A stretch of 64,000 bases of DNA. It comes from Candidatus Woesearchaeota archaeon (GTDB lineage Archaea > Nanobdellota > Nanobdellia > Woesearchaeales > UBA119). The notes below the pieces were generated by a model that worked only from the letters and a program-made list of their open reading frames with translations, ran no database searches and was not told the DNA's origin. Position 1 is the first letter of the stretch. Every line of letters begins with the position of its first letter. The position numbers were made by a program, and so were the translations under genes. This document shows, piece after piece, positions 7,921 to 58,662 of this stretch. The stretch is from assembly GCA_035363095.1 (NCBI GenBank), contig DAOSEK010000001.1, forward strand, positions 17,233 through 81,232. Reading direction: 5' to 3'.

Positions 7921-9394
<1,474 letters not shown>

Positions 9395-9636: not shown

Positions 9637-9896
9637 GAAAAACCTCAGCATAAATGCCTGGGTATCTCGTGAATATTCGAGATTAATCCTTGCATGAATC
9701 AGTCTATTCTTACTTTAGCTTGAAAAATCAATAACCTTACCCTAACAGGCGAGGTATGTTGGTAATATGAAAGCATGCGCTGTATTAAAGCGAGGTTGTT
9801 GATTACAAAAAAGCGTACCAAGCCCTCTTATTGAAACACGAGGTATGCTTTTCTATTGACCAATGTATGCGAATGAACTGGATTTAATGAAATCAG
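9637..9896. repeat. Composite structured intergenic repeat, arranged A1(+)-B(+)-C(+)-A2(+)
   Basis: The first half of module A (gaaaaacctcagcataaatg...gcatgaatcagtctattc) is followed by module B (a ~75-bp element with 12-bp terminal inverted repeats, aaccttaccc...gcgaggttgttgat). Module C follows (acaaaaaagcgtaccaagccctc...acgaggtatgcttttctatt), then the 3' part of module A (caatgtatgcgaatgaactggatttaatgaaat). The same arrangement occurs in reverse at 14944-15207. Confidence 0.8.
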
Positions 9897-9996
9897 AATA
9901 TAGATTTAATTATTTTGAGATTTTTATTTCTCGACTTAAATAATGGATATTTTATTCTAGAAACTTGTTAATCTCATAATTCACAGATAAGTGATA

Positions 9997-10066
9997 AGTT
10001 ATTTCATACTAAGTTATTTCATACTAGGTTATTTCATACTAGGTTATTTCATACTAAGTGATTTCA
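9997..10066. repeat. Tandem direct repeat, 4 x 17 bp (gttatttcatactaRgt), followed by degenerate gatttca-containing copies
   Basis: The array can be read directly between 9998 and 10065. Related half-units (gtgatttcacaaaatgatttcagaataagcgatttcaaat) follow to ~10100. An AT-rich degenerate repeat zone (ttaatgatattt...) lies at 10120-10200. Confidence 0.8.
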
Positions 10067-10315
10067 CAAAATGATTTCAGAATAAGCGATTTCAAATAAT
10101 TCGAACCAATTTATGCTATATATATATTAATGTTATTAATGATATTTGTATTAATGATATTTATGTTAACAATATTTATGTTAATAATTCTTAATAAATA
10201 CGGATTGATTTAGAATGGGAGGGCTTTTTAAATAGGAGATTTGTCTGATTAGTTCTTTTGTTGGGTTGTTTTGATGAGTTGTTTTGATTAATTCCTTGTT
10301 AAATAAATTCTTATG

Positions 10316-12040
10316 TTAGTAGGTTCTTTTGTAATATTTAGTATGGAGTAGGTTATGAGCAATTTCACTTCCAGGCTTTTTTAGATATTCAGAATATAGT
10401 TTTTTTATCTGTGGATTTTCATGGCATTTTCTGATTGGGTTTTTTGAGTCATTTTGATATATTGCTTTTGCTCTGGCTAAAATTATTTCTTCGCTAGAAG
10501 GTATAGGCTGACCTCCACCACCTATACAACCGTGAGGGCAGGCCATTATTTCTACAAAATCAAGCTCGATTTTTTTTGATAAAATCATTTCAATTAGTTC
10601 TTTTGCTTTTGAGAGTGTATTTATGCTTGCAAATCTTAACAATTTTTCGTTAAGGTTTATTTCACCGTATTTTGATTGGGTGAATTGACGTAATTCTTTG
10701 AATTCTATTTTTTCTAAGGGTTTTCCTGTTGCAGATTCGTAAGCTGTCCTTAATGATGCTTCCATTACTCCTCCACTTGAGCCAAAGAGAGTTCCAGCCC
10801 CAGAAGATCTGCCTAATGGATTGTCAAATAGAGAGTCTAAAAGTATTGGAAAGTTTATTCCAGCACCTCTTATCATTCTTCCAAGTTCTCTAGTTGTTAG
10901 AGAATAGTCTACCTGCCCTTTAACTTCAGGTCTTGCGATATCAAATTTTTTTGATAGGCAAGGCATTATTGAAACTAAAACTATATTTTTAGAATCTATC
11001 CCTATTACTTCTGAGAAATAAGTTTTAACGATACTTCCAAGCATTTGATGTGGGCTTTTACAGGTTGAAAGATTTGGTATTAGGAAATGATATGAGTCTT
11101 CAACCATCTTTACCCAAGATGGACAGCAAGATGTAAACATTGGAAGGGGATTGTTTGATTTATTAGATAACCGTTCTAATAATTCGTTTGCCTCTTCGAT
11201 TATTGTTAAATCAGCCCCAAGTTCGGTATCAAATATATAATCAAATCCAAGCATCTTAAGAGCGGTTGGGATTTTTCCAGTCACTATAGTTCCAAAAGGC
11301 ATGCCAAATTCTTCGCCTAATGAAACTCTTATTGATGGTGCAACCTGTGCAATCACTATTTTCTTTTTGTCGTTTATTGCTTTTAATACGTTATCAATAT
11401 CGCTTTTTTCTTCAAGAGCACAAGTTGGGCAGTTTATTACACACTGGCCACAATGGGTACAATTGGTCTGGATTATAGTTTTGTTAAATGCTGGACCAAC
11501 TTCAAAATTTCCGCCTTTGTTTCGATAATCAATACAATCAATATCCTGCAACTGATCACATACCTGAACACAAAGTCCACACTTTATACAACGTGAAGGA
11601 TTTTTGATAAAGGCGGGTGATGAGTCATCTATTTTTGTAAATGAATAAGAAGTTTTTTCGTCAGGAACATTGTAATAAGGGGTGATTGATAGGTTTAGTT
11701 CATTTGCATAGGCTAAAAGTTTGCAATCTATCATCTTATTGCAAAGTAAACAATCAGATTGGTGATCAGATATCAAGAGTGCAAGATTTGTTTTTCTTGC
11801 TTGAATAACTTTTTGGGAGTTAGTGTTAATAACCATTCCTTCTTGGATATATGTAGAGCAGGCGGTTAGGAGATTTTCTCTGCCAACTACCTCTACAACA
11901 CAAAGTCTGCATGCTGCTCTAGGTTCTAATTTTTCATGATAACAAAATGTTGGGATTTCAATTCCCACTTTTTTAGCAGCATCAAGTATTGTAAGTTTTT
12001 CATTAAATTCATAATCCAGTTCATTTATTATTACTCGCAA
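10316..12040 (-). CDS. hydA: [FeFe]-hydrogenase catalytic subunit (H-cluster domain with N-terminal 2Fe-2S and multiple 4Fe-4S ferredoxin domains)
   Basis: The H-cluster motifs are present: L1 (FTSCCPSW), L2 (IMPCLSKKFD) and L3 (EIMACPHGCIGGGGQP). There is an N-terminal plant-type 2Fe-2S Cys pattern (CYHEKLEPRAACRLC). Two CxxCxxCxxxCP motifs are present (CIKCGLCVQVCD and CTHCGQCVINCP). Confidence 0.85.
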   Translation of the reverse strand: MRVIINELDYEFNEKLTILDAAKKVGIEIPTFCYHEKLEPRAACRLCVVEVVGRENLLTACSTYIQEGMVINTNSQKVIQARKTNLALLISDHQSDCLLCNKMIDCKLLAYANELNLSITPYYNVPDEKTSYSFTKIDDSSPAFIKNPSRCIKCGLCVQVCDQLQDIDCIDYRNKGGNFEVGPAFNKTIIQTNCTHCGQCVINCPTCALEEKSDIDNVLKAINDKKKIVIAQVAPSIRVSLGEEFGMPFGTIVTGKIPTALKMLGFDYIFDTELGADLTIIEEANELLERLSNKSNNPLPMFTSCCPSWVKMVEDSYHFLIPNLSTCKSPHQMLGSIVKTYFSEVIGIDSKNIVLVSIMPCLSKKFDIARPEVKGQVDYSLTTRELGRMIRGAGINFPILLDSLFDNPLGRSSGAGTLFGSSGGVMEASLRTAYESATGKPLEKIEFKELRQFTQSKYGEINLNEKLLRFASINTLSKAKELIEMILSKKIELDFVEIMACPHGCIGGGGQPIPSSEEIILARAKAIYQNDSKNPIRKCHENPQIKKLYSEYLKKPGSEIAHNLLHTKYYKRTY

Positions 12041-12168
12041 ATAAACACCTTTTTTTGATTGAATATCTTATTTTTTGAATTTTTATTTCGTTTTTTCTCT
12101 ATTTCTTACTATATTATTTTTTTATATTATTATACTTCATATCGTTATTTTTTATAATATTATTTTTT

Positions 12169-14328
12169 TTAATTAACTTCTTTTCCGGTCATATCTACTT
12201 TTATTATTGAATTTATAGGACATGATTGAACGCATTTTCCGCAATGAATGCATTTGTCTTGGAGTATTATGTGTTTTTTTCCTGTTTGACCATAGATAGC
12301 GTTCACAGGACAAACTGAATAACAATTATGGCAACCTATACAGCTATCAATTATTTTGTATGTGATTTTTGATTTGGCTACTTTTGATAGATATTCATCT
12401 TTAAAATATTTTAATGAGGACAGTATTGGGTTTGGAGCGGTTTGACCTAAACCGCAAAGGGAGTTTTCCTTTACATAATGTGCGAGTTTCTCTATTTTTT
12501 GGATATCCTGAATTGAACCATCTTTTGATATGATTCTTTCAAGCATATATTTCATTTGCCTAGTTCCTTCTCTACAAGGGGTACATTGGCCACAGCTTTC
12601 TTTTGATGTAAAATCCAAGAAATAATGGGCGAGTTCTAATATGGAGTTTGTTTCATCAAGCACTATCATTCCACCACTTCCAACTATTGAACCGGCTTCT
12701 TTTAATGATTCATATCCTATTTTGAGATTTTTAAGTGAATAGGGGATACAACCTCCAGAAGGACCTCCCGTCTGTATTGCTTTTATGTGACTGCCGTTAA
12801 GAGAACCACCACCTATTTTTTCGATAATTACTGATAATTTTTCACCGAAATTTACTTCGATGAGACCTGTGTTTTTTATGTTGCCACTTAGTGCTAAGAC
12901 TAGGGTGCCACCTGAATTTTCATCTCCTAATTCTGAAAACCATTCTGCACCATTTTTTAGGATTAGAGTTACGCAACAATATGTTTTTACATTGTTTATG
13001 TTTGTTGGCATTGAATATATTCCTTGACTTGCAGGATAAGGTGGTCTTGGTCTTGGATTGCCTCTATTTCCCTCAATTGAATGGATTAGTGCAGTTTCTT
13101 CACCGCATACAAATGCACCTGCGCCACTCATAAGTTGAAGATCAAAATCAAAACCTAAGTTTAATACGTTTTCTCCAAGAAATCCTCTTTCATACATGGT
13201 TTGAATGGCTTTTTTAAGGGTTGACTCTGCTAAAGGGTATTCTTTTCTTAGGTAGATGAAGCCTTTTTTCGCGCCTGTTACGAAAGCACAGATTAGCATA
13301 CCCTCAAGTAGTAAGTAAGGGTTACTTTCAAGAATGCCTCTATCCATGAATGCACCAGGGTCGCCTTCATCGGCATTACATACGATGTATTTTAAGGGTA
13401 TTATGCGATTGTTATCAATTTTATTTGGATTTGTTTTTGAAGTGTTATCTGGTGTGTTGTTTAAATCGTTATTTGAAGGAAGTTTTGCATCTTTTAGTAA
13501 CCTCCATTTTTTTGCTGTTGGGAATCCAGCGCCTCCTCTTCCTCTCAGTTTTGATTTTTCTAGGTTTAATAGAGTTTTTTCGCTTCCTTCAAATACTGCG
13601 TTTTTAAGGCCTATAAAACCACCTAGATGAATATATTCTTCAAGGTTTAAGGGATTGATAAAGCCACAATCTTTTAGTATCACCCTGTTTTGATGTTTGA
13701 AAAAAGGTATATCGGCAAAGTAGGGATATGATTTTTTTTCATCTGAGAATGTTTTTTCTGAGAGTATTTTGTTGTCTATGATCGAAGCGATAATAGAACT
13801 TGCATCACTTGGTTTGAGATGACAGTAGAATATGTTTTGTGGTTGTATTATTGCCGTTGGACCTACTTGACAAAAGCCATGACACCCAGTCTGTTTGATT
13901 TGGATGGAAATTTTTTTTGAGTTTAGAAGGGATTTGTTTTCAATTATTGTTTTTTTTATTGCAGAAATTATGTCTAATGAATCGCGGGATTTGCAACCCG
14001 TTGCCCCACAAACACAGATGGTGTATTCGCTTATGGTATGTTTTTTTGTTATATTCTTTTTTGATGTATTTTCTTTTGAACTAGGTTTTTTTATATGAGA
14101 TTTTTTTATATGAGGGCTTTTTGTTCTTTTGATTTTTTTTGTTGTGTTTTTAATCGCAAGGGTATCAGTGACAAGGGTATTAGTGATTGGGTTATTATTA
14201 GGATTATTAGGATTAGTATTATTAGCATTATTATTATTAGGAGTAGTATTATTAGTTACTGGATCACTAGTTAAAGTTTTTAATTTTGTTGTTTTCTTTT
14301 TTTGATTTTTGTTTTTTGGGTTTTTCAT
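12169..14328 (-). CDS. hydB: NuoF-like flavoprotein subunit of a bifurcating-type hydrogenase (HydB), with an N-terminal low-complexity extension
   Basis: A thioredoxin-like 2Fe-2S domain is present (ICVCGATGC...CHGFCQVGP). An NADH/FMN-binding 51-kDa-type core follows (GRGGAGFP, GAGAFVCGEETALIHSIEG). A 4Fe-4S site (ESCGQCTPCREG) and two C-terminal ferredoxin motifs (CIGCHNCYSVCP and CIHCGKCVQSCP) are present. The first ~100 aa are N/T/P/K-rich low complexity. The start codon overlaps the hydC stop by 4 bp (ATGA). Confidence 0.8.
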   Translation of the reverse strand: MKNPKNKNQKKKTTKLKTLTSDPVTNNTTPNNNNANNTNPNNPNNNPITNTLVTDTLAIKNTTKKIKRTKSPHIKKSHIKKPSSKENTSKKNITKKHTISEYTICVCGATGCKSRDSLDIISAIKKTIIENKSLLNSKKISIQIKQTGCHGFCQVGPTAIIQPQNIFYCHLKPSDASSIIASIIDNKILSEKTFSDEKKSYPYFADIPFFKHQNRVILKDCGFINPLNLEEYIHLGGFIGLKNAVFEGSEKTLLNLEKSKLRGRGGAGFPTAKKWRLLKDAKLPSNNDLNNTPDNTSKTNPNKIDNNRIIPLKYIVCNADEGDPGAFMDRGILESNPYLLLEGMLICAFVTGAKKGFIYLRKEYPLAESTLKKAIQTMYERGFLGENVLNLGFDFDLQLMSGAGAFVCGEETALIHSIEGNRGNPRPRPPYPASQGIYSMPTNINNVKTYCCVTLILKNGAEWFSELGDENSGGTLVLALSGNIKNTGLIEVNFGEKLSVIIEKIGGGSLNGSHIKAIQTGGPSGGCIPYSLKNLKIGYESLKEAGSIVGSGGMIVLDETNSILELAHYFLDFTSKESCGQCTPCREGTRQMKYMLERIISKDGSIQDIQKIEKLAHYVKENSLCGLGQTAPNPILSSLKYFKDEYLSKVAKSKITYKIIDSCIGCHNCYSVCPVNAIYGQTGKKHIILQDKCIHCGKCVQSCPINSIIKVDMTGKEVN

Positions 14329-14810
14329 TTTTTATTTAGAGAATGTTTTTTTAGTATATCTTTTATTTTCTCTTTGTTTAGGTTTCCATATATTTTTCCA
14401 TTTATCATTGCAACGGGTGCAAGTGCACAAGCTCCAAGGCATCTTACTTCCTGAAGAGAAAATGCTAAGTCTTTTGTGGTTTCTCCAAGTTTTATTCCAA
14501 GTTCGGTTTCAAATATTTTTATTATTTCAAGACTGCCTTTCACTCTACAAGCAGTCCCATCACAGACTTGAATTGATATTTTTCCGTTTTTTTGAAAACT
14601 AAAGTAGCTGTAAAATGATAGTATGCTAAATATTCTTGATAGGGGAATTTTTAATTCTGTTGAGATGAAGTCTGCATCATCTGGGGATACAAATCCCTGT
14701 TTTTCTTGAATTTCTATTAGTAAAGATAATAGGTTTAGCCTTTTTTGTTTAGTGTGATTGTGTACTATTGTTTTAACCTCATTTGAGATGTTTGTGTTTA
14801 AATTTGTCAT
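14325..14810 (-). CDS. hydC: NuoE-like thioredoxin-fold [2Fe-2S] subunit (HydC)
   Basis: The 161 aa ORF has the NuoE/HoxE Cys pattern (CDGTACRVKGS...CLGACALAPVAMINGKIYG). It is translationally coupled to hydB. Confidence 0.75.
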   Translation of the reverse strand: MTNLNTNISNEVKTIVHNHTKQKRLNLLSLLIEIQEKQGFVSPDDADFISTELKIPLSRIFSILSFYSYFSFQKNGKISIQVCDGTACRVKGSLEIIKIFETELGIKLGETTKDLAFSLQEVRCLGACALAPVAMINGKIYGNLNKEKIKDILKKHSLNKK

Positions 14811-14943
14811 GATGTATCCTTCTTTGGGTGCTGATTTTTTATTTTTGTTAATTTATTGTAAAAAGGTTTTTTATGAATTTTTCAAAGATTTTAAATAGAT
14901 TTGAAATTCAATTGTGAATTAGTTTGAAACTCTAAATTAGTTT

Positions 14944-15207
14944 GATTTCATGAAATCCTAGTTCATTTTGTATACTTTGGTTAATAGAAAAGCATACCGC
15001 GTGTTTCAATAAGAGGGTTTGGTACGCTTTTTTGTAATCAACAACCTAGCTTTAATACAGTGCATGTTTTTATATTACCTATATGCCTCGCCCTTTAGGG
15101 GGAGGTTGTTGATTTTTCAAGCAAAAAGGTTGAATGAACGGATTCACATAACCTTTAACCTCAATTATTCGCGGGATACCTCGATATGTATGCCAATTTT
15201 TTTCATT
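14944..15207. repeat. Composite structured intergenic repeat, arranged A2(-)-C(-)-B(-)-A1(-)
   Basis: This is the reverse-complement arrangement of the 9637-9896 locus. It reads gatttcatgaaatcc...catactttgg (A 3' part), aaaagcataccgcgtgtttcaataagagggtttggtacgctttttt (C), atcaacaacct...ggaggttgttgat (B, with perfect 11-bp terminal inverted repeats) and ttttcaagc...gaatgaacggattcacat...acctcgatatgtatgcc...ttttcatt (A 5' part). Confidence 0.8.
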
Positions 15208-15525: not shown

Positions 15526-15860
15526 TATGTTGAGAAGAGAAAGGTAGGGTAAATGAAAAGGTGTTGAGGAAAGAAATATAAGTTGAGTTAAGAGATGTTG
15601 AGAAAAGAAAGATAGGGTAAATGAAGAGATGTTAAAGATAGAGATATAAGTTGAGTTAAGAGATGTTGAGAAAAGAAGTATAGGGTAAATGAAGAGATGT
15701 TAAAGATTGAGATATAAGTTGAGTTAAGAGATGTTGAGAAAAGAAGTATAGGGTAAATGAAGAGATGTTAAAGATTGAGATATAAGTTGAGTTAAGAGAT
15801 GTTGAGAAAAGAAAGATAGGGTAAATGAAGAGATGTTGAGGTAAGAAATGTAAAGTAAGG
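15526..15860. repeat. Tandem direct repeat (minisatellite-like), ~4.5 copies of a 67-69-bp unit built from two ~34-bp half-units sharing aagagatgtt
   Basis: Units start at ~15580, 15649, 15717 and 15784 (aagttgagttaagagatgttgagaaaagaaRKatagggtaaatgaagagatgttaaagatWgagatat). A partial copy lies upstream and another downstream. Stop codons occur in all frames. There are no interspersed unique spacers, so this is not CRISPR. Confidence 0.85.
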
Positions 15861-17203: not shown

Positions 17204-17352
17204 AACAGTATGAGATGGCTTTAAGGTTTATTAGATTTAATAAAAAAATTATCATAATCTTTCGTGCTTTGCCTTTTTAATTTTTGAAATTTTGCGTTTT
17301 AGAGTATCTTAGAGGTTGCCATTTAAAAACTCAACTGTACTACTATTCAAAT

Positions 17353-17482
17353 GAAAAATCTCGGCGTAAATTCCCCAAGTATCTCAGGGATAGTCGAGGT
17401 TAAACGTTATGTTAATCAGTCTAGTCAAACTTTCAGCTTTAAAAATTAACCAAAGTATGGGAATTACAGATTCATATAATTA
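17353..17482 (+). repeat. Degenerate solo copy of repeat module A
   Basis: The copy reads gaaaaatctcggcgtaaat...gatagtcgaggttaaacg...aaccaaagtatgggaattacagattcatataat. It is collinear with module A (gaaaaacctcggcataaatg...gatagtcgaggttaatcc...accaaagtatgcgaatgacggattcatgaaat). It lies in the convergent 3' region between the GTPase and the flaJ-like gene. Confidence 0.65.
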
Positions 17483-24623: not shown

Positions 24624-24753
24624 GATTTCGTGAAATCCAGCATCATTTCGCATACTTTGGTCTGGAGGCCAAAAGTTTGAATAGACGGATTCACATAACG
24701 TTTAACCTCGACTATTCTAAAGATACCTCGCCATTTATGCAAAGGTTTTTCAT
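24624..24753 (-). repeat. Solo full-length copy of repeat module A (reverse orientation)
   Basis: The copy reads gatttcgtgaaatccagcatcatttcgcatactttggtctggaggccaaaagtttgaatagacggattcacataacgtttaacctcgactattctaaagatacctcgccatttatgcaaaggtttttcat. It is the reverse complement of the module A consensus. Confidence 0.85.
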
Positions 24754-29080: not shown

Positions 29081-29401
29081 TTAAAAAAACACCTCCGTGT
29101 TAAAAAACTCTCTTCTACTTTTGTGCGTTTGGTTTGCTAGAAATCCTTGTCCATCCGGTTGCCCATTGATGAACACTAGGTAATAGGATGAAAAAACTAC
29201 TATATAAATCTTTCTGATTTCTTGACGGAAAAATCTGTTTTTTTATTCACTTGACAGTGGTGTTTACGTATTTTTGAGAAGATTTGAAGAGTATATTATT
29301 GGATTTTTTTATTGGATATTTTCGAATAATTACTTTAGTAATAATATCACTTTAGTAATAATATCCAACAAATTTAAAGAATACAAGCAAAAGTTAATAT
29401 A

Positions 29402-29659
29402 ATCAACAACCTCACCCTAAAGAGCGAGGTATGTTGGTAATATAAAATCATACGCTACGTTCAAGCGAGGTTGTAGATTTCATGAAATCCAGCATCACTT
29501 CGCATACTTTGGTCTTTCAAGCCAAAGTGAGAATAGACGGATTCATCCAAGGATTAACCTCGACTATCCTAAAGATACCTCGACATTTATGCCGAGGTTT
29601 TTCATTACAAAAAAGCGTACCAAGTCCTCGTGTTTAAACACGAGGTATGCTTTTCTATT
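29402..29659. repeat. Composite structured intergenic repeat, arranged B(+)-A(-)-C(+)
   Basis: Module B reads atcaacaacctcaccctaaagagcgaggtatgttggtaatat...gcgaggttgtagat. A full module A copy follows in reverse orientation (atttcatgaaatccagc...ccgaggtttttcat). Module C follows, with a perfect central palindrome (acaaaaaagcgtaccaagtcctcgtgtttaaacacgaggtatgcttttctatt). Confidence 0.85.
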
Positions 29660-29726
29660 AATGAAAAACTAGTATGCAGTACAATTGTTCAGAAAAAGAT
29701 TGTGTATAAGCTACAATAACAAAATA

Positions 29727-29810
29727 TGTGGGGGCAAGGATTTGAACCCTGGTAGGCACTAAGCCAACAGGTCCTAAGCCTGTCCCGTTTGACCGCTCCG
29801 GCACCCCCAC
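29727..29810 (-). tRNA. tRNA-Leu (anticodon TAG), class II with long variable arm
   Basis: The reverse complement reads GTGGGGGTGCCGGAGCGGTCAAACGGGACAGGCTTAGGACCTGTTGGCTTAGTGCCTACCAGGGTTCAAATCCTTGCCCCCACA. The acceptor stem is perfect, the anticodon loop is CTTAGGA and the extra arm is ~15 nt. Confidence 0.85.
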
Positions 29811-30097
29811 TTTGAGAAAAAAGAAAAACTAATACTTTAAATATTTATCTAATTCAAATATGAGTGTTTAGATTATTATTTGTTTTTTTGGAGAGTTAGT
29901 TATCTTTGTGCTAAGGATTTTTTACTGTTGCTTTTAGAGACATACTATGGCAGATTTTTAGTTTTAATGAAGAAAAGACATAGGCAATGATATTATATGT
30001 CCGAAGATATTTAAATAGTTATTAGATATAGTTGTATTATATTAACGAAATTATTAGGAGAATTAAATTGATGAGAAAGTAATAAAGGGTGAAAAGT

Positions 30098-30604: not shown

Positions 30605-30675
30605 TAGTCTATTTAGTGGTTGGAGAATGTTTACAAGGAAAAAAATAGGAACAAAAGATAAGAAAAAAAGAAAGA

Positions 30676-32264: not shown

Positions 32265-32340
32265 TTTTTTAATTTTTGCTTTTGTTTTTGTCGTCTTTAA
32301 TGACATTATTTAACAATAAAGGATTAAGGGTGATCTTTTT

Positions 32341-34635: not shown

Positions 34636-34647
34636 ATTATTTTTTTG

Positions 34648-35026
34648 ATTTAATGAAATCCTCGCTCATTTGCATACTTTGGTTAATAGAAAAGCATACC
34701 TTGTATTTCAACAAGAGGACTCGGTACGCTTTTTTGTAATGAAAAACCTCGGCATAAATGTCGAGGTATCTTTAGGATAGTCGAGGTTAATCCTTGCATG
34801 AATCCGTCTATTCTAATTTTGGCTTGAAAGACCAAAGTATGCGAATGACGGATTCATGAAATCTACAACCTCTCTGAACGTAGCGTATGCTTTTATATTA
34901 CCAACATACTCGTCCTTTAGGACAAGGTTGTTGATTTTTCAAGCCGAAGTAAGAAAGGAAGCGTGTATGGAGCAAAAGACCTTAACTTCTTGTGAGATAT
35001 CTTGATAGTTATGCCAATGTTTTTAA
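34648..35026. repeat. Composite structured intergenic repeat, triple-nested: A2(-)-C(-)-[A(+) full]-B(-)-A1(-, degenerate)
   Basis: It reads gatttaatgaaatcctcgctcatttgcatactttggttaat (A 3' part, reverse), then aaaagcataccttgtatttcaacaagaggactcggtacgctttttt (C, reverse). A full module A follows in forward orientation (gaaaaacctcggcataaatgtcgaggtatctttaggatagtcgaggttaatccttgcatgaatccgtctattctaattttggcttgaaagaccaaagtatgcgaatgacggattcatgaaat). Then comes B in reverse (atctacaacctc...aaggttgttgat), then ttttcaagccgaag... (A 5' part, reverse, degenerate). Confidence 0.8.
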
Positions 35027-35155
35027 CTTATTTTTGTAGTTGGTTAATAGAGAAGTAAGTATTATGATAATGGCTTTTAATTTTTTTTGGATTAGTTTCG
35101 TAGTGGGTTTTGAAAATGGTTAATTATTTAAACAGATTGTTTTTTTGAACCGTAT

Positions 35156-37096: not shown

Positions 37097-37220
37097 GATT
37101 TCGTGAATCCGACATTTGTATAATTTGCTTTTGAAACCAAAAGTTTGAAGATACGGATTTGTTAAACGATTAACCTCAACTGTCCTAAAGATACCTCCGA
37201 ATTTATGCTGAGGTTTTTCA
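37097..37220 (-). repeat. Solo copy of repeat module A (reverse orientation)
   Basis: It reads gatttcgtgaatccgacatttgtataatttgcttttgaaaccaaaagtttgaagatacggatttgttaaacgattaacctcaactgtcctaaagatacctccgaatttatgctgaggtttttca. Like the 24624 copy, it is followed by ttattgg. Confidence 0.8.
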
Positions 37221-37346
37221 GTTATTGGTTATTTGTTTTTTGTTAATGTGATTATTTTTAAGGGTTTAACAACTTTAAAGTCACAAAGAAAGATTTATTA
37301 AAAGGTTTCTAAAAGGTTCTAGTTATATATTTGAAAGGGTTCTAAA

Positions 37347-42490: not shown

Positions 42491-42536
42491 TTACGATAAC
42501 GAAAAATTATTAAGCATAAAGGGCAAAGAAAAATAC

Positions 42537-43820: not shown

Positions 43821-43826
43821 AAAATG

Positions 43827-43926
43827 AAAAATCTCAATATAAATATTCAATGTATTTCGCAAATAGTTGAGGTTAATTTTTTGTGAGTCCATCTCTTCTC
43901 ACGTTGGTATTAGGACCAAAGTATAT
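43827..43926 (+). repeat. Degenerate partial copy of repeat module A
   Basis: The copy reads gaaaaatctcaatataaatattcaatgtatttcgcaaatagttgaggttaatttt...ggaccaaagtatat. It is collinear with the module A 5' part and the accaaagtat segment. Confidence 0.5.
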
Positions 43927-43983
43927 AAAATAATTGATCCACAAAATCAAAATTAGATAAAGTAACTTGTGAGGTGTAACAGG

Positions 43984-45018: not shown

Positions 45019-45317
45019 AATTTGTCCAAAAATAGTAAAAAAAAGACTACTCAGAGAAGATTAAGCATGGCAAAAAAGAAATTATTATATTGTCATCACT
45101 TTGAAAATTGTTGATAGCAAATTTGAACCAACGGAAAATTTAAAATGTTTTTATGTGTGGCAATTAAGAAATATCTTTTATGTGAAGTATATTGCATATA
45201 GAGTTTTGTTTGGAGATCATAAATTGTTAATTATACCAAATAATTACATGTTACTTTTGAAAAGAATTTAACATTTTTTCAAAGGATAATTATTTAAATA
45301 GAATACGGGGATTTGCA

Positions 45318-46664: not shown

Positions 46665-46737
46665 AGTTAAATATAAGTTGTTCTCTTCAAAAGAACAAAT
46701 CTTACAGGTTTTTGGTGTTAATAATGAACCTCTCCCC

Positions 46738-47170
46738 CTAAAAGAAGGAGTATCTGTTAAGCGATTGTTGGTTAATAACAGCTCGATTTGATTGTGCGAT
46801 ATAATTTTTTATTACCTCTGCGGTTACATTACCAACACTTCGAAAAAAATTTCTAGGACTCCAAAGATGCCCCTTCCTGAAATAACCTCTCAACCACTTG
46901 TGCTTTTGGAAAAGCTTATAAGAGCTGTATCCCTTTAAGAGGTTGAACGCCTTTGAAACGCTCATTGTTGGTGGCACTTCAACAAAAAAATGAACGTATC
47001 AGTCATAACTTAAAGTTCGTATAATTGCATCCCATAACGTGATATGGCCTCTTTTAATATTACTTCACAGTCAGCCTTTACCCATGGGAATTTGAAACAA
47101 TCCCATGCATATTTTGGTTTCCATACCAGATGAAAACTGTTTTGTCCAACGCTGTGTGCGAAATTTGTTA
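46738..47170 (-). pseudogene. tnpA: IS200/IS605-family Y1 (HUH) transposase tnpA, disrupted by a stop plus frameshift
   Basis: Minus-strand translation gives the N-terminal part MEITNFAHSVGQNSFHLVWKPKY...PWVKADCEVILKEAISRYGMQLYEL*. After a one-base frame change it gives YVHFFVEVPPTMSVSKAFNLLKGYSSYKLF...WLRGYFRKGHLWSPRNFFRSVGNVTAEVIKNYIAQ. Together these match the IS200 TnpA consensus (HxH...PKY...DHVHLLV.IPP..SVS...LKG.SS...W...YF..SVG). Confidence 0.75.
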
Positions 47171-47290
47171 TTTCCATTTAGCTCATCTCCGAAGAGCAAA
47201 GCTCACGCTAACTTCGGGTGGTTAGTGCGTGGCGCAAAAAATTTTCGCTCGCCACGTATTTTTTTATTTTAGAAAAGAAAAAGATTTGTG
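47170..47290. mobile_element. GC-rich hairpin-bearing IS200/IS605 end region
   Basis: Two perfect palindromes are present: ccgaag...cttcgg and cgtggcgcaaaaaattttcgctcgccacg. They lie adjacent to the tnpA pseudogene. The local composition contrasts with the AT-rich surroundings. Confidence 0.5.
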
Positions 47291-47589
47291 TAAAAAAGAC
47301 AAGCCTTCAGTCTAAAGACTGAGGTATTTAATACGTTTAACTAGAGAATTATCTTATAGCTCAAATTTTTTTGAACTAAAATTATGAAACCCTATAGGAA
47401 TCCTTGTGCACTTTATCAAATGCCTCACAGGTCAGTTTTTTCATTTATTCAGTTGAAGTAACATATGAACCTGCCCAAAACTATTTTATTGCTTAAGAGA
47501 AATTTAAATTTTTAGAATCTCAACGTATCGAACTAATAGATAATTTTATAAATGAGTCTTTTTTTCTTTTTGGAAGTATTGATATTTTT

Positions 47590-47662
47590 GGCTCCGTAGC
47601 TCAGTAGGTGGAGCGCACGACTGTTAATCGTGAGGTCGGCAGTTCGAGGCTGCCCGGAGCCG
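47590..47662 (+). tRNA. tRNA-Asn (anticodon GTT)
   Basis: The sequence is GGCTCCGTAGCTCAGTAGGTGGAGCGCACGACTGTTAATCGTGAGGTCGGCAGTTCGAGGCTGCCCGGAGCCG. The anticodon stem CACGA/TCGTG encloses loop CTGTTAA. A T-tract follows. Confidence 0.85.
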
Positions 47663-47702
47663 CTTTTTTACTTGTCATGTGTAGATAAGGAGTGTTATAT
47701 GA

Positions 47703-48995
47703 ATGAAAATTTCCGAACTAAAAGAAGGAATGGAGAATATTGAAATTTATGCTTCAGTTCAAGATACAAAAGCAATTGGGAAGATAATTTTTTTAAAGTT
47801 AAGAGATGACAGCGGGCTTGTCCAACTCACTTGCATTGAAGGAAGTGATATACCTTTTGATGGCATTAAATCTATAAAAAAGGAGTTTTATGTAAGAGTA
47901 AAAGGGGATGTAAGAGCTTCTAAAAATGAAGGGAGTATTGAAATCATTCCAAAACATATTATAGTTGTTTCTGAAAGTTCAGGTGATTTACCATTCAAGA
48001 TAAATAATGAATTTGAGAAGGTTTCTCAGGATAAAAGGTTAGATTGGCGCTCTTTGGATTTGCGAAGCTTAAGATTACAATCTATTTTCAAGATACAATC
48101 AGCGATTGTGGAAGGTATTACACAAGAGTTATTTTCTAAAGGATTTCGAATTTCATTTACGCCTTGTTTACTGAATACTGCATCAGAATCAGGTTCTGAG
48201 GTGTTCCCAGTCATATATTTTGACAAAGAAGCATTTCTCAGACAAGACCCACAGCTACATAGGCAACTTACTATTGCTGGTGGAGCCAAAAAGATATTTG
48301 ATTTGGGTCCAGCTTGGAGAGCAGAAAAATCACATACAAAGTACCATCTATGTGAGCACAGGGTTTGTGCGGTAGAATGCGCAGATATTGAAGATGAACG
48401 TGACATTATGAGAGTCGAAGAGTCTTTGATAGTCTCAGCAATTAATAAAGTTAATCAAACTTGCAAAGATGAATTAGAAAGACTAAATACAAGCATTTGT
48501 GTTCCTAAAACACCCTTTCCAGAGTTGACTTTCCCTGAAATATTCTCGATTTTGAAAGAAAGTGGAAAGGAAACTTTCGACAGCGAAGATTTGGATAAAG
48601 AAGCAGAGCAAATTTTAGCTAAATATGTTAAGGATAAATATGACTCAGATTTTTATTTTGTTAACAGATTTGCTTTCTCGATAAAGCCATTTTATGTAAT
48701 GAGAATAGATGATAATCCTAAACGGGCAAGATCTGTGGATTTGTATTATAAGGATCTAGAGTTGAGTTCTGGTGGACAACGAGAGCACAGATATGAGTAT
48801 TTGATGAGAAACATTGAAGAAAAGGGTGTTAAAATCTCTGAGGTTGAATGGTTTGTGAAATTCTTTAAGTATGGCGTTGCGCCTCATGGGGGATTTGCTT
48901 TAGGAATAGAAAGATTAACACTCGCACTTACTAAAAGTGAAAATATTAGAGATTGTGTACTGTTTCCAAGAGATCCAGAGAGGTTAAATCCATGA
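47703..48995 (+). CDS. aspS: Aspartyl-tRNA synthetase, archaeal type (paralog 2; likely non-discriminating given the downstream gatCAB)
   Basis: An OB-fold N-terminus is present (IGKIIFLKLRDDSGLVQLTC). The class II core and the ending APHGGFALGIERLTLALT...VLFPRDPERLNP are present. The Shine-Dalgarno site aaggagtg lies 9 nt upstream. The stop overlaps the gatC start (ATGA). Confidence 0.8.
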   Translation: MKISELKEGMENIEIYASVQDTKAIGKIIFLKLRDDSGLVQLTCIEGSDIPFDGIKSIKKEFYVRVKGDVRASKNEGSIEIIPKHIIVVSESSGDLPFKINNEFEKVSQDKRLDWRSLDLRSLRLQSIFKIQSAIVEGITQELFSKGFRISFTPCLLNTASESGSEVFPVIYFDKEAFLRQDPQLHRQLTIAGGAKKIFDLGPAWRAEKSHTKYHLCEHRVCAVECADIEDERDIMRVEESLIVSAINKVNQTCKDELERLNTSICVPKTPFPELTFPEIFSILKESGKETFDSEDLDKEAEQILAKYVKDKYDSDFYFVNRFAFSIKPFYVMRIDDNPKRARSVDLYYKDLELSSGGQREHRYEYLMRNIEEKGVKISEVEWFVKFFKYGVAPHGGFALGIERLTLALTKSENIRDCVLFPRDPERLNP

Positions 48996-49273
48996 GAATA
49001 GATGAACAAACTATTGAAATTTTGTCCAATATTTCTAAATTGAAACTAAGTGCTGATGAACAGAATCATATGATAGTTGATCTTAAAGGCATTCTTAATG
49101 CTTTTATAGCAATACAAGAAATTGATGTTCATAATTTGGAAAGTGCCATATTGCCCATTCACTTTGAGAACTGTATTAGGAATGATGAAGCCAGGGTTTT
49201 TGAAGAAGATGCTACATCAACAGCAATATATATTATCGATAATTTTATAATCGGTCCGAGGACTTTAGAATGA
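48992..49273 (+). CDS. gatC: Asp/Glu-tRNA amidotransferase subunit C
   Basis: The ~93 aa ORF is coupled by ATGA overlaps to aspS upstream and gatA downstream. Its size and position are typical for GatC. The track start (48953) lies inside aspS. The ATG at 48992 (MRIDEQTIE) was chosen. Confidence 0.65.
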   Translation: MRIDEQTIEILSNISKLKLSADEQNHMIVDLKGILNAFIAIQEIDVHNLESAILPIHFENCIRNDEARVFEEDATSTAIYIIDNFIIGPRTLE

Positions 49274-50697
49274 TTATAGAACACATAAATAACGTGAATT
49301 GTGAGAAAATAGACTTAACATCGTTTGCTAAATCTGTTATTGATGAGATAAAGGATATAAACTCGAAGATTTACTGTTTCAATTGTGTTTGCGAGGATTC
49401 TGCACTAAAGGATGTCCAGATAGTGAGTAAACGCAAAAAACTGGAAAAAGGAACCCTTGCAGGGTTAATAATTTCTGTAAAAGATAACATTTGCGTTAAA
49501 GATGTTGAGACTACAGCAGGTTCAAAAATCCTTTCAGGATATAAGCCAGTATTCAATGCAACGGTTGTTGAAAAGCTCAAAATGGAAGGAGCGATAATAG
49601 TAGGAAAAACTTCTATGGACGAGTTTGGATTTGGTGGCTTTAATATTAATACAGGAGTAGATTTTAAGGTCCCTTTAAATCCAATAGACCTCAAAAGAAG
49701 TACAGGAGGTTCTAGTGGAGGAAGTGGAGCAGTAACAAAAGTAGTTGATTTTGCTCATGTTTCGATTGCTGAAAGCACAGGTGGTTCTATTGAATGTCCA
49801 GCATCATTTTGTGGGGATGTTGGTTTTTGTCCAACATATGGTAGGATAAGCAGGTTTGGTCTTATTTCATATGCCAATTCATTAGACAAAATTGGTATAT
49901 TGTCAAAAGATGTGGAGGATATAATCCCTGTTTTTAATGCAGTTGCAGGTAAGGACAATAAAGATCCTACTTGCATAACTGATACAATTAAACTAAAAAA
50001 AGCAATAGCAAAAAAAAAATTTAAAATTGGTATAATTAGTGAGTCATTTGATGACTATATTGCCGATTATATTAAAGAACATCTAAGGGTACTAATAAAT
50101 CTAATCAAGAAGAAGCATGAAATTTTTGAAGTTTCTTTACCTTTCACTTTTAAGTACGGAGTGCCAACATATTACATAATTGCTACAAGCGAAGCATCAA
50201 CAAATCTTTCCAAATTCTGTGGGTTAAGATATGGAATTCAGGCAGATCCAAAGACTAAGACATTTTCCAATTTTTTTTCAGAAATAAGGTCTGAGAATTT
50301 GGGAAAAGAAGCAAAACGTAGGATTTTACTTGGAACCTATGCTAGAATGGCAGGTTATAGAGATGAATATTATCTCAAAGCAACAAAAGTCAGGCGACTT
50401 ATAATAGATGAATATAAAGAGGCTTTCAAAAAGTATGATGTTTTAATTTCTCCAACCACCCCAATGTGTGCACCATTATTTTCAGAAATATCGAAGATGG
50501 ATGTTGTGGAACAATATTTGTTTGATCAATTAACAGTTGGTCCAAATCTCGCAGGTTTACCTCATGCATCAATCCCTTTTGCAAAATTCGGTGAAATGCC
50601 TTTAGGACTAATGGTTGTTTCAGATCACTATAAAGAACAGGAACTCATTGATTTTCTGTTTGAAATTGAGAAGGTTGGTAAGGAGAATGGAATTTAA
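49270..50697 (+). CDS. gatA: Asp/Glu-tRNA amidotransferase subunit A (amidase family)
   Basis: The amidase signature is GGSSGGSGAVTKVVDFAHVSIAESTGGSIECPASFCG (GGSSGG...TGGS(I/V)R-type). The protein is 475 aa. Confidence 0.85.
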   Translation: MIIEHINNVNCEKIDLTSFAKSVIDEIKDINSKIYCFNCVCEDSALKDVQIVSKRKKLEKGTLAGLIISVKDNICVKDVETTAGSKILSGYKPVFNATVVEKLKMEGAIIVGKTSMDEFGFGGFNINTGVDFKVPLNPIDLKRSTGGSSGGSGAVTKVVDFAHVSIAESTGGSIECPASFCGDVGFCPTYGRISRFGLISYANSLDKIGILSKDVEDIIPVFNAVAGKDNKDPTCITDTIKLKKAIAKKKFKIGIISESFDDYIADYIKEHLRVLINLIKKKHEIFEVSLPFTFKYGVPTYYIIATSEASTNLSKFCGLRYGIQADPKTKTFSNFFSEIRSENLGKEAKRRILLGTYARMAGYRDEYYLKATKVRRLIIDEYKEAFKKYDVLISPTTPMCAPLFSEISKMDVVEQYLFDQLTVGPNLAGLPHASIPFAKFGEMPLGLMVVSDHYKEQELIDFLFEIEKVGKENGI

Positions 50698-52105
50698 TCA
50701 AGAGGTAATTATAGGTTTGGAAACACATATTGAAGTAGATACATTATCTAAATTATTTTGCTGTTGCCCACGTACTGGGATAGACACTCCTAATTCCAGA
50801 GTATGTCCTATTTGTCTTGGTCATCCTGGAGCGAGACCTTTTTTAAATGGCAAAGTCTTGGCAGCTGCAGTCAAATTGGCTTTAGCGATTGATGGTCAGA
50901 TTACAGAAAAAGTTGTGTTTTCCAGAAAAAACTACTTTTATCCTGATATGGCAAAGAATTTTCAAATAACTCAATTTGAAAGTCCACTGTCACAGAAGGG
51001 GTCTGTGAAATTAAATTCCGGTAAGTTAGTTAAAATAAGAAGACTTCATATTGAGGAAGACCCTGCGTCTTTAGTCTATCCGAAAACTATGAGAGATTCT
51101 CAATATGTTTTAATTGACTATAACAGATCAGGTATCCCACTTATTGAGTTGGTAACTGAACCAAGTATTAATTCTCCAAGAGAAGCAAGAGAATATATGA
51201 ACAAGCTCATGTCCATTTTAAGTTACCTTAAGATTTTTGATGTGAATTCCTGTGTCATCAAAAGTGATGCTAATATATCTATAAGAGATAGTGATTATAC
51301 ACGTGTTGAAATCAAGAATATAAGCGGAATTAAGGAGATTGAAAAAGCCCTTTCTTACGAGCTGATGAGACAGCGATCTTTGATACGCAGAGGAATTAAG
51401 ATTGTTAAAGAAACTAGAGGCTGGAACAAAGTAGGAAAAACGACTTTTAGCCAGCGAACGAAGGAAAGCGAAGAAGATTATGGGTATATTTCAGAGCCTG
51501 ATCTTCCCGAAATAGTTATCACACCAGAATATATACGGAAGAATAAGGATGAAATTCCTGAATTACCAGCACAAAAGCAAGTAAGATTTGTTGAAAAGTA
51601 TAAACTTAATGAGGATGATTCATTCGTATTGACTAAGGAACCTGAGATTGCAGATTTATTTGAGAACGTCGCAAAGGTGATTGATTCAAATATCGCTGCT
51701 AACTGGATAAGAGGTGAGATTTTGCGCGTTCTGAATTATAACAAAAAAAGATTGAATGATTCTTACTTATCTGCTGAGAGAATAATAGATTTACTGAAGT
51801 TATTATGTGAAAATAAGATCTCTAAAAATATGGCTCAAAATTTTTTGGAAAGAATGATTACTGAGAATTTTTCTCTCAGAGATTACATTTTGAACAATAA
51901 TATTTCGCAGATTTCGGATGACAAAATATTGACAGATATTGCAAAAAAGGTGCTAAATGAGGAAAAAATTGCATTAGAAGATTATTTGAGTGGTAAGGAA
52001 AAAGCGCTTGATTATATCATTGGAAAATGTATGGCACTTTCAAAGAGTAAGGCCGACCCAATAAAGATCAACAAGATACTATTGACTCTAATAAGAACGC
52101 GTTAA
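50687..52105 (+). CDS. gatB: Asp/Glu-tRNA amidotransferase subunit B
   Basis: The motifs are GLETHIE, CPICLGHPGA, RKNYFYPD and HIEEDPAS. A C-terminal YqeY-like tail is present. The start was set at the ATG at 50687 (MEFNQEV), which overlaps the gatA stop. The track ORF begins upstream, inside gatA. Confidence 0.85.
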   Translation: MEFNQEVIIGLETHIEVDTLSKLFCCCPRTGIDTPNSRVCPICLGHPGARPFLNGKVLAAAVKLALAIDGQITEKVVFSRKNYFYPDMAKNFQITQFESPLSQKGSVKLNSGKLVKIRRLHIEEDPASLVYPKTMRDSQYVLIDYNRSGIPLIELVTEPSINSPREAREYMNKLMSILSYLKIFDVNSCVIKSDANISIRDSDYTRVEIKNISGIKEIEKALSYELMRQRSLIRRGIKIVKETRGWNKVGKTTFSQRTKESEEDYGYISEPDLPEIVITPEYIRKNKDEIPELPAQKQVRFVEKYKLNEDDSFVLTKEPEIADLFENVAKVIDSNIAANWIRGEILRVLNYNKKRLNDSYLSAERIIDLLKLLCENKISKNMAQNFLERMITENFSLRDYILNNNISQISDDKILTDIAKKVLNEEKIALEDYLSGKEKALDYIIGKCMALSKSKADPIKINKILLTLIRTR

Positions 52106-56900: not shown

Positions 56901-56912
56901 TTTTATCAGGTT

Positions 56913-57392: not shown

Positions 57393-57472
57393 AATGAAAA
57401 CACCTTGATTATGAATGATAAATGGAATTTAGATTGATTTATAAATCTTTTTGTTATTGGTTTAAAAGACGT

Positions 57473-58513
57473 TTAGTAGTTTGGTTCTTCATCGTTAAAG
57501 AATTCATTTTCATCAACAAAGAATACATCGTTTCGTTCTTGGGATGGTGGTTTTATGGATTTTTTGTGAGGATGTTTGTTTTCATCAAGGGTTTCTTTTT
57601 GTTCTAAATTTGCTGTGTTTTGGGTGTTTTGATTTTTGTTTGTTTCTTTGTGTGAGGGTTGATTGGAAGGGATTGTTGTGGTTTTTTCTTTATTTGGGCT
57701 TTTTGTTTTTGCTTTTTTGTTTTGATTTGTTTTTATGGGTTTTAGTTGTTGAGTGTTTGTCTGTTTTTGTATTTTTGGTTCGAATTGGGTTATGTATTTT
57801 TGGTAATCTTCTCTTAGCTCTTCAAGGTCTGAGATATCTTTTTCTGATAGGTGGTTGTGGATTTTTTCGGCTATAGTTGTTGCTAACTGGTAAGCAAGTT
57901 TTGCTTTGTATATGTTCTTTTTTTCTAGCATGAGATAGAATATATCTATTGAGTTTTGGAGCTTTTTTTGTTGTGTTGTTATGATGAATTCTTTTTGTTT
58001 TTGTTCGTTTAGATTCCTTGTTATTATGAATGGGATTGCGAAGAAGAGGGCGTATAGTCCAAGTAGGATTATCCAAAAGTCTATGGGGTTTTTTTGGGCA
58101 AATGCTTTTAAGTTTGAGGTTTTTTCAGATTTATTTACGCATACTGATTTTAAGGGGTCGCATGCAAGGGTTTGGCAGTCTTTATCTGTTTTGCATTTTT
58201 GACCTAACTTGCAAGGCTCACATAATTCTCCTGCACAGTCAATGTCTGTTTCATCGTAGTCAAGGATTGAGTTTTGGCAGTGTGTTTGAAATTGGTGGTC
58301 ACAGTTGATTGTTTCTATTAGAATATATTCTGAACCACATTTATTTACGTCATAGCATAATCTTATTTTGGTACCGTTCTCAAAGCATTGTGAGTAGTTC
58401 ATGCAAACGCTTCTGTATCTGCAATCGGGAGTGGGAAGTGTTTGGGCAGATATTGAACTAACTAAAGCGAATGCTAGTGATAGTGCCAAAAATAATACAA
58501 ACCTTTTCCTCAT
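57473..58513 (-). CDS. Hypothetical secreted/membrane protein with a Cys-rich ectodomain and a K/Q-rich cytoplasmic tail
   Basis: A signal peptide is followed by ~20 Cys in ~110 aa, then one TM helix, then a charged low-complexity tail. Confidence 0.5.
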   Translation of the reverse strand: MRKRFVLFLALSLAFALVSSISAQTLPTPDCRYRSVCMNYSQCFENGTKIRLCYDVNKCGSEYILIETINCDHQFQTHCQNSILDYDETDIDCAGELCEPCKLGQKCKTDKDCQTLACDPLKSVCVNKSEKTSNLKAFAQKNPIDFWIILLGLYALFFAIPFIITRNLNEQKQKEFIITTQQKKLQNSIDIFYLMLEKKNIYKAKLAYQLATTIAEKIHNHLSEKDISDLEELREDYQKYITQFEPKIQKQTNTQQLKPIKTNQNKKAKTKSPNKEKTTTIPSNQPSHKETNKNQNTQNTANLEQKETLDENKHPHKKSIKPPSQERNDVFFVDENEFFNDEEPNY

Positions 58514-58607
58514 GAGAGCTTTATAGAATAAGATTCTTTAAAAAGCTTTTGATGTGGCAAGGGGCTTTAACAGATTCTCTTATAATTGTTTTGATTTCAT
58601 GATGGAC

Positions 58608-58662
58608 GAAAAATCTCGAATATGCACGAGATGCCCCGGCATTTAGGCTGAGGTTTTTCATT
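58608..58662. repeat. Palindromic fragment derived from the 5' end of repeat module A (hairpin)
   Basis: The sequence gaaaaatctcgaatatgcacgagatgccccggcatttaggctgaggtttttc has arms gaaaaatctcg and ctgaggtttttc that form a ~11-bp stem. The first arm is the module A 5' terminus. The element lies ~65 nt downstream of the L37e stop. Confidence 0.6.

Follow-up and report, generated by a model that had tools for sequence, protein, structure and literature searches.

Introduction

Palindrome-associated transposable elements (PATEs) were described in Haloquadratum walsbyi and other haloarchaea (Dyall-Smith et al. 2011, PMC3119063), where they are defined by the lack of inverted terminal repeats, by near-terminal palindromes whose distance from the 5' end is longer than that from the 3' end, by the absence of target duplication and by a targeting sequence of 4-5 nt (PMC3119063). 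Mobile elements were often found nested within each other in that study (PMC3119063), and PATE-like elements are also present in Geobacillus stearothermophilus (PMC10055086). The IS200/IS605 group, the commonest family of insertion sequences (IS) in archaea (PMC13343696), includes ISDra2, which inserts 3' of 5'-TTGAT-3' via single-stranded DNA (PMC2806898). Here we analyse a stretch of 64,000 nt from a Candidatus Woesearchaeota archaeon (assembly GCA_035363095.1, contig DAOSEK010000001.1, positions 17,233 to 81,232), which we call the window and to whose positions all coordinates refer. A first-pass annotation, made from the letters of the window without database searches, had noticed an abundant family of hairpin-rich intergenic repeats built from three modules, A, B and C. 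We find that these repeats represent, very probably, two PATE families, A and C-B, that is, transposase-less miniature derivatives of an IS200-type member of IS200/IS605. No paper describing these repeats was found in the literature.

All the sequence-level features that define PATEs in Haloquadratum are found in both A and C-B. Like PATEs, the two elements are too short to encode a transposase, have neither terminal inverted repeats nor target duplications, carry near-terminal palindromes related to those of IS200/IS605, with the left tip farther from its palindrome than the right tip, and follow a conserved word of 4-5 nt at their left end. They are likewise present in many copies of heterogeneous sequence, often nested in other mobile elements, in genomes whose resident IS200-type genes are mostly or all pseudogenes. 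Unlike haloarchaeal PATEs, to which their sequences are unrelated, they reside in a member of the Woesearchaeota (DPANN) with ~33% GC, and their probable parent is a tnpA-only IS200 of ~0.6 kb and not an element of the IS1341/tnpB type. In addition, the nesting seen here is reciprocal between two PATE families, whereas in Haloquadratum it is mostly caused by unrelated SMR-A repeats.

With ISDra2 of Deinococcus radiodurans (TnpA structures 2XM3 and 2XMA), the elements share insertion 3' of TTGAT, subterminal hairpins and the absence of target duplication, and the Y1 transposase of the resident IS group is homologous to ISDra2 TnpA (E = 3e-14). ISDra2, however, is autonomous and carries both tnpA and tnpB, whereas the elements described here are 122-132 bp long and non-coding, and their targets also include TTCAT, TTAAT, TTTAT and TTGGT. 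The decayed IS of the window and its intact relatives resemble IS200 and IS608 in being tnpA-only, in having both hairpins on one strand and in having a right tip that resembles the target word, but the copy in the window is dead (frameshift and stop) and the target word is different, that of IS608 being TTAC. Mosaic, hairpin-rich intergenic repeats are also formed by the repetitive extragenic palindromic (REP) sequences and the bacterial interspersed mosaic elements (BIMEs) built from them, by REP doublets forming hairpins (REPINs), which are likewise tied to a Y1/HUH protein, the REP-associated tyrosine transposase (RAYT), and by the BOX elements of Streptococcus pneumoniae. A and C-B differ from the REP/BIME and REPIN-RAYT systems in their left-end and right-end architecture, directional target word, insertion polymorphism and parent IS, and no RAYT was found.

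Two elements with distinct left and right ends

The repeat family is real, as all loci listed by the first-pass annotation carry the sequences attributed to them, and the recurrence is far above chance. With one mismatch allowed, CATGAATCCGTC has 5 matches (0.14 expected from shuffles), while ATCAACAACCTC has 7 (0.40 expected) and the pattern CCTC-N8-16-GAGGTAT has 6 (0.09 expected). Repeat finding aligned 168 nt at 94% identity between 29499-29666 and 34678-34845, and BLASTN with module A returned six full copies (at 34741, 29477, 24625, 37098, 17353 and 43826), three split copies (9637/9858, 15109/14944 and 34931/34648) and two fragments (3293 and 58612). The nesting described at the four composite loci was reproduced by self-comparison and BLASTN, with refined boundaries. 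Two details changed: the degenerate A placed at 43827-43926 is present but runs on to 43945, and B-C does lie within the long A hairpin, although its exact site is the loop of a small inner hairpin, TTTGG/CCAAA.

The proposal of three independent modules, by contrast, gives way to two elements. C and B are the left and right ends, respectively, of a single element: in ~0.9 Mb of related DNA, C adjoins B in 73 copies and is separated from it by an A-sized insert in 17, and none of the four unpaired matches of C or B is farther than 100 nt from the end of the locus sequence, so that B was never found apart from C. When oriented like the tnpA gene of the parent IS, A measures 121-128 bp and C-B 128-132 bp, with no room for an open reading frame (ORF). 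With hairpins in braces and element boundaries marked by ^, A reads TTGAT^TTC(A/G)TGAATCC...CATAC-{TTTGG-loop-CCAAA}...GATAC-{CCTCGGCA-TTTA-TGCCGAGG}-TTTTTCAT^ and C-B reads TT(G/C)AT^TAATAGAAAAGCATA-{CCTCGTG-loop-CACGAGG}...CATA-{CCTCGCYC-TTTA-GGGYGAGG}-TTGTTGAT^. Each end of both elements thus carries a subterminal hairpin, and the right end consists of the hairpin followed by 8 nt that finish in TTCAT or TTGAT. Neither the termini of A (TTCATGAA...GGTTTTTCAT) nor those of C-B (TAATAGAA...GGTTGTTGAT) form inverted repeats spanning the whole element.

This layout is that of the IS ends described below. The reverse complement of the annotated module A ends in GATA-CCTCGGCA-TTTA-TGCCGAGG-TTTTTCAT, and that of B in CATA-CCTCGCTC-TTTA-GGGTGAGG-TTGTTGAT, both of which have the format of an IS right end. 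At the other side, ~24 nt from its start, A contains CATAC-TTTGG-TCTTTCAAG-CCAAA, a parallel to the IS left-end hairpin ATAC-CTCGG-TCTTTAGG-CCGAG except that both arms differ, and C, when reverse-complemented (TAATAGAAAAGCATA-CCTCGTG-TTTCAA-CACGAGG-ACTTGG), corresponds to the IS left end at an equal offset. The 12-bp inverted repeat of B lies inside C-B, at one side of the element, and both of its arms have the IS200 right-end format of a hairpin plus 8 nt ending in TTGAT.

As a separate observation, the right-end tip occurs three times in tandem after an A copy in one related locus (L008 2474-2500: GGTTTTTCATTTA GGTTTTTCATTTA GGTTTTTCATTT).

Target word and reciprocal nesting

Profile searches over the related DNA gave 216 matches to A and 129 to C-B, corresponding to 83 and 43 distinct contexts, respectively. 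TTGAT stands immediately 5' of A in 52 of the 83 contexts, at a background of 0.0027 (0.27%) per position, and a one-mismatch variant of it (TTCAT, TAGAT, TTAAT, CTGAT, TTTAT and three single variants) in 23 more; the other 8 differ by more, and 3 of these are A-model matches inside composite elements. Where the upstream flank is no recognisable B or A right end, TTGAT was still found in 33 of 56 contexts. The right tip of A is TTCAT in 54 of 83 contexts. C-B, which ends in TTGAT, was found 3' of TTGAT, TTCAT, TTAAT, TTTAT or the TTGGT in the left-end hairpin loop of A. Insertion thus takes place exactly 3' of TTGAT-like pentamers, and TTGAT belongs to the target and not to the element, because the uninterrupted junction between C and B, GGTTGTTGAT^TACAAAAAAG, already contains it (the A-filled junction being GGTTGT(T/A)GAT^A^TACAAAAAAG) and because five copies of A are joined head to tail to another A, directly after its TTCAT tip, with no TTGAT in between.

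The nesting follows from the fact that both elements themselves carry the target words. The antisense TTGAT at the junction between C and B, which is part of the inverted repeat of B, serves as a landing site for A in the opposite orientation, the TTGGT in the left-end hairpin loop of A serves as a landing site for C-B, and the right-end tips TTCAT and TTGAT are targets for head-to-tail tandem copies. As such, the window offers a clean case in which the Y1 target rule alone could yield both reciprocal nesting and tandem arrays.

Presence and absence between strains

Two orthologous pairs of loci from related strains differ by the precise presence or absence of one element, with no target duplication. 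For A, the filled site (L087) reads ...GGTTTTTGAT^121 nt^TTAGTTAGGGG and the empty site (L077) ...GGTTTTTTAT^TTAGTTAGGGG, and for C-B the filled site (L095) reads ...AAATCTTTCAT^131 nt^TATTTAAATATAG and the empty site (L086) ...AAATCTTTCAT^TATTTAAATATAG. L070 versus L008 was considered as a third empty site and set aside, as the two are too diverged for a clean comparison. Around the gene of ribulose-bisphosphate carboxylase (RuBisCO), most copies are common to the strains compared (L123-L128). In one related strain with flanks 95-99% identical, 1.6 kb is missing (33426-35108 versus L123 3897-3954), comprising an HD-domain gene (33631-34635) and a whole three-level nest; its junctions are untidy, and this indel says nothing on mechanism.

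The IS200 relative and its ends

The first-pass annotation had suggested a tnpA pseudogene of the IS200/IS605 type as a trace of a possible mobiliser, which is borne out: the ORFs at 46738-47177 (minus strand) match Pfam Y1_Tnp with E = 1.3e-13 and are broken by one frameshift and a stop within the HUH motif. The pseudogene belongs to a decayed IS, with a left-end hairpin CCTCAGTCTTTAGACTGAAGG and a right end finishing ...GGGGGAGAGGTTCAT, and is not flanked by A, B or C. The Pfam annotation of the window gave no DDE transposase, and no TnpB/OrfB domain either, although a PATE bearing an omega-RNA, the guide RNA of TnpB, near its right end would call for a TnpB in the genome. We considered whether A and C-B might themselves be autonomous IS200/IS605 elements and rejected this, as they have no coding capacity, and the IS at 46724-47339 has the architecture but a broken tnpA.

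The reconstructed TnpA has 258 homologues, mostly of 146 aa. Two of them, P0001 (91% identical) and P0051, are intact, with an HVH version of the HUH motif and the catalytic tyrosine, and match solved Y1 transposases, including those of ISDra2 (E = 3e-14) and IS608. These relatives are multi-copy IS200 elements with their own ends in at least three genomic contexts, and their ends could be defined because the encoding contigs place the IS at independent insertions in different contexts. The left end has a hairpin ~15 nt in (...ATA-CCTCGG-TCTTTAG-GCCGAGG), and the right end consists of a hairpin plus 8 nt (...GGTTCAT), a geometry that matches A and C-B.

Covariance models were built from 59 A right ends and from 40 C-B left ends. 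In the IS loci, the best match of the A right-end model falls exactly on the IS right end, aligned over its whole length up to the terminus, followed by the IS left-end hairpin, while the best match of the C-B left-end model (E = 0.15) coincides exactly with the left terminus of the P0051-type IS. The A right-end model also matches the right end of B in the window (E = 0.02-0.03), the A right-end hairpin compares with the IS left-end hairpin at z = 5.1 (0 of 500 shuffles as good), and the right half of A aligns to the 3' end of the tnpA-only IS. Plain local alignment of element ends with IS ends picks out the right features at z values of mostly only 1-2.4, and we therefore rely on the rank and position of the covariance-model matches. 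The link to the IS ends accordingly rests on the fact that, among tens of thousands of positions, the two termini rank first, and do so on the strand of tnpA and in the correct order.

Proposed mechanism and alternatives

The first-pass annotation had already likened the repeats to non-autonomous elements of the PATE or miniature inverted-repeat transposable element (MITE) kind, possibly linked to an IS200/IS605 Y1 transposase, and anatomy, target word, presence/absence polymorphism and end resemblance all agree with this. We propose that, in single-stranded DNA, a Y1 (HUH) transposase supplied in trans would bind the subterminal hairpins of the top strand and would cut at the left end, behind the flanking TTGAT-like pentamer, and at the right end, behind the TTCAT or TTGAT tip. 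The single-strand circle so released would be re-inserted 3' of another TTNAT-like pentamer without target duplication ("peel and paste"). That A and C-B would be mobilised by TnpA, and by which TnpA, we infer from their ends and target word, and the IS200 that carries the tnpA pseudogene at 46724-47339 is the likely source of the repeats.

Several points weigh against this interpretation. At the empty sites, the boundaries are ambiguous by 1-3 nt (a shared ATT), so that a fixed 3-nt ATT duplication might in principle have occurred, and in the A pair, though only there, repeat-mediated deletion is an alternative, since the flank GGTTTTTGAT resembles the A right tip GGTTTTTCAT. The similarity of the ends is modest, and the model E-values of 3.6 (A) and 0.15 (C-B) are not significant on their own. 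A differs from the IS in the stem of its left-end hairpin (TTTGG/CCAAA against CTCGG/CCGAG) and in carrying an additional long hairpin of 12 bp, without counterpart in the IS, that sequesters its left tip. The test of G.T against A.C mismatches for a single functional strand gave no strand asymmetry in the hairpins (54 vs 41 and 16 vs 13), and the copies in the window have no orientation bias (5-6 plus vs 5 minus), also relative to GC skew. Finally, there is no intact tnpA in the window, and tblastn with TnpA found none in any of 74 A-bearing metagenome loci, which had been collected by a scan with the A left-end pattern, and no tnpA adjoins an A left end among these loci.

The last of these points bears on a variant in which the elements proliferate without a resident functional transposase, or in which the 12-bp hairpin of A marks an exapted role; the only tnpA in the window is dead, and none was found in ~0.6 Mb of A-bearing metagenome loci. 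We consider this variant unlikely. The additional hairpin of A could have an exapted role, e.g. as a terminator, an RNA element or a brake on transposition, and individual copies might possibly have been exapted as well, for instance through the right-end hairpin and T5 as a terminator or small RNA (sRNA).

The repeats might instead be a multi-copy family of structured non-coding RNA (ncRNA; sRNAs, terminators or regulatory hairpin cassettes), maintained by selection on the RNA and spread by duplication or recombination. The hairpins are indeed real: single-stranded A is predicted to fold at -23.7 kcal/mol (z = -5.6), far better than shuffles, and strongly so on both strands (z = -5.6 and -6.5); one pair of the long A hairpin covaries from A-T to G-C; the right end resembles a terminator in its hairpin followed by T5; and all copies are intergenic. 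Yet no known RNA family was recognised at first reading, and the searches agree, as only rRNA and tRNA pass the Rfam gathering threshold in the whole window and nothing matches the repeats across 29350-35100 even at E <= 1. Copies stand in both orientations relative to neighbouring genes, their identity falls to 67% with decayed stems, and G.T wobbles are not favoured over A.C, the mismatches of the outer C helix favouring the antisense strand. An RNA family would, moreover, not give precise presence or absence at TTNAT, nor nesting in each other's hairpin loops. An ncRNA origin thus seems quite improbable to us.

The first-pass annotation had also entertained a REP-like family. Even less plausible is a system of the REP/REPIN type, where a domesticated single-copy Y1 transposase (RAYT) keeps up short palindromic repeats. 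Such a system belongs to the same HUH/Y1 superfamily and would account for hairpin repeats in intergenic DNA and for a mosaic clustering that recalls BIMEs. The units, however, are 122-132 bp long, have a left end distinct from the right and a TTGAT flank that is directional, and are not palindromes of 20-40 nt in inverted doublets; the relatives of tnpA are typical multi-copy IS200 elements that have ends of their own and lie in at least three contexts, and the resident tnpA is a pseudogene that is not flanked by the repeats.

We give hardly any credence to the suggestion that module B, and perhaps the long hairpin of A, is a classical MITE with terminal inverted repeats moved by a separate DDE transposase, because, in spite of the 12-bp inverted repeat of B (ATCAACAACCTC/GAGGTTGTTGAT) and of IS4/IS5-type transposases in related strains (DDE_Tnp_1 genes in L123-L125 and L128), B never occurs without C, no target-site duplication is seen at B, C-B or A, both arms of the repeat have the IS200 right-end format, and there is neither similarity to DDE elements nor a DDE gene in the window.

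The interpretation of A and C-B as PATEs adds two well-delimited families and a probable IS200 parent for the DPANN archaea, in which mobile elements are little described, while our understanding of IS200/IS605 biology is unchanged. Such repeats will break assemblies, confuse binning and mislead ncRNA searches in these genomes, and the consensus ends permit copies to be masked or to be used as strain markers.

Copies in the window

The copies of the window and the IS are listed in Table 1. The repeats cover 1749 nt, ~2.7% of the window, and, as first described, all copies are intergenic and occur in both orientations.

Table 1. Copies of A and C-B and the IS200 relative in the 64-kb window (strand as that of the element, or of the outer element of a nest)
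Position	Strand	Feature	Parts	Basis or remark
1883..2020	+	Doubtful, very degenerate A-like copy, 3' of TTGAT		nhmmer E = 0.0015 only
3293..3322	-	A left-end fragment, 30 nt up to TTTGGT, 3' of TTGAT		Word search, BLASTN
9635..9891	-	A interrupted by complete C-B in the same orientation	A right-end part 9635-9726; C-B 9727-9858; A left-end part 9859-9891	BLASTN, profile search
14947..15206	+	A split by C-B	A left 14947-14981; C-B 14982-15113; A right 15114-15206	TTGAT flank at 14942-14946
17351..17478	-	Solo A, diverged (74% to reference), flank TTAAT		BLASTN, profile search, right-end model
24627..24753	+	Solo A, 127 bp, long-form left end, directly 3' of TTGAT		BLASTN, profile search, right-end model
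29402..29660	-	C-B carrying A	C-B right half (annotated B) 29402-29478; A 29479-29605 (+); C-B left half (annotated C) 29606-29660	Repeat finding, BLASTN, profile search
34650..35027	+	Three-level nest	Outer A 34650-34683 and 34936-35027; C-B 34684-34738 and 34861-34935 (+); inner A 34739-34860 (-)	Repeat finding, BLASTN, profile search, right-end model
37100..37221	+	Solo A, 122 bp, short-form left end, 3' of TTGAT		Right-end tip mutated: TTCAG
43824..43945	-	Solo A, strongly diverged (67%), 3' of TTGAT		BLASTN, profile search, right-end model
46724..47339	-	Decayed IS200-type insertion sequence, 616 bp	tnpA pseudogene 46738-47177	90% DNA identity to intact copies L032-L034
58596..58661	+	Internally deleted A, 3' of TTGAT	~10 nt of left-end tip joined to right half (~56 nt)	Right-end model 45.4 bits, BLASTN

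At the composite locus ~250 nt upstream of the 16S rRNA gene (9635..9891), whose upstream flank in the sense orientation is CTGAT, C-B is placed 3' of TTGGT in the loop of the A left-end hairpin; the locus at 14947..15206 is its mirror image (160 nt at 88%). In C-B carrying A (29402..29660), the A lies 3' of T(T/A)GAT on the C-B antisense strand, and C-B itself directly follows a TTCAT; the same composite of B and A was found with different flanks, at 96% identity, in L002. The three-level nest combines both arrangements, with C-B in the left-end loop of the outer A and the inner A at the antisense TTGAT of C-B. The solo A at 24627, which lies in a divergent gap upstream of the S3Ae gene, is present in every strain copy recovered. 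The diverged A at 17351-17478 has 5 additional nt at the exact C-B insertion point (TTGGT^TAATT^TTTAAAGC), and this TAATT may be what was left when a deletion removed the core of a C-B; TAATTT also follows the left-end fragment at 3293-3322.

Host, carriers and neighbouring features

The window is archaeal, with ~33% GC, a 16S-tRNAAla-23S operon (4528-9393, minus strand), three further tRNAs and, according to Pfam, housekeeping genes including a HydABC-like [FeFe] hydrogenase, form III RuBisCO, aminoacyl-tRNA synthetases, GatA/GatB and glutamine synthetase. Several metagenomes of JGI, ENA and Logan contain this genome as well. A scan of a genome collection gave 31 loci, only 5 of which are true members, the others being mostly chance matches. 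These members are four contigs of one metagenome-assembled genome labelled "uncultured Methanosarcinales archaeon" (CAZTMQ01; L008, L012, L013 and L021) and one contig binned as "Elusimicrobia bacterium" (MWCF01000041; L002). The GC content of the contigs is 34-36%, and A-bearing metagenome loci encode, in syntenic order, proteins that are 85-91% identical to theirs. The two labels are likely the result of mis-binning or wrong labelling; the Pfam content of the Methanosarcinales-labelled contigs is not diagnostic of taxon. If that label is right, and if Woesearchaeota are episymbionts, the unlikely variant considered above could extend to PATEs shared, or mobilised by TnpA, across a symbiont-host pair.

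The window has several other features of note. The [FeFe]-hydrogenase operon between the first two nests (10316-14810, minus strand) has three genes, encoding HydA-like (574 aa), NuoF-like (719 aa) and NuoE-like (161 aa) subunits, and the N-terminal ~90 aa of the NuoF-like subunit form an extension rich in repeats, for which 15-nt repeats at 14036-14332 code. Short tandem repeats occupy 9995-10288 (15 bp x 4.8 at 9995-10066, and 24-, 15- and 13-bp arrays), in the interval that separates the 3' end of hydA from the nest lying upstream of the rRNA operon. At 15527-15837, in the divergent intergenic region beside the nest at 14947-15206, there is a 68-bp tandem repeat of 4.6 copies (94% match) with a 34-bp half-period, which does not resemble a CRISPR array because the whole 68-bp unit is conserved. 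The decayed IS200 sits in the middle of a cluster (42231-52105) of three class II aminoacyl-tRNA synthetase paralogues (42231-43820, 45318-46664 and 47703-48995), which also holds genes for an asparaginase, tRNA-Asn, a GatA-like amidase and GatB. A sub-threshold Rfam match to HPnc0260 at 32229-32366 (minus strand; 49.2 bits against a gathering score of 59) overlaps tRNA-Val and is probably spurious. The large subunit of form III RuBisCO is encoded at 30676-31947 (minus strand), and an identical protein at NCBI is named type III ribulose-bisphosphate carboxylase.

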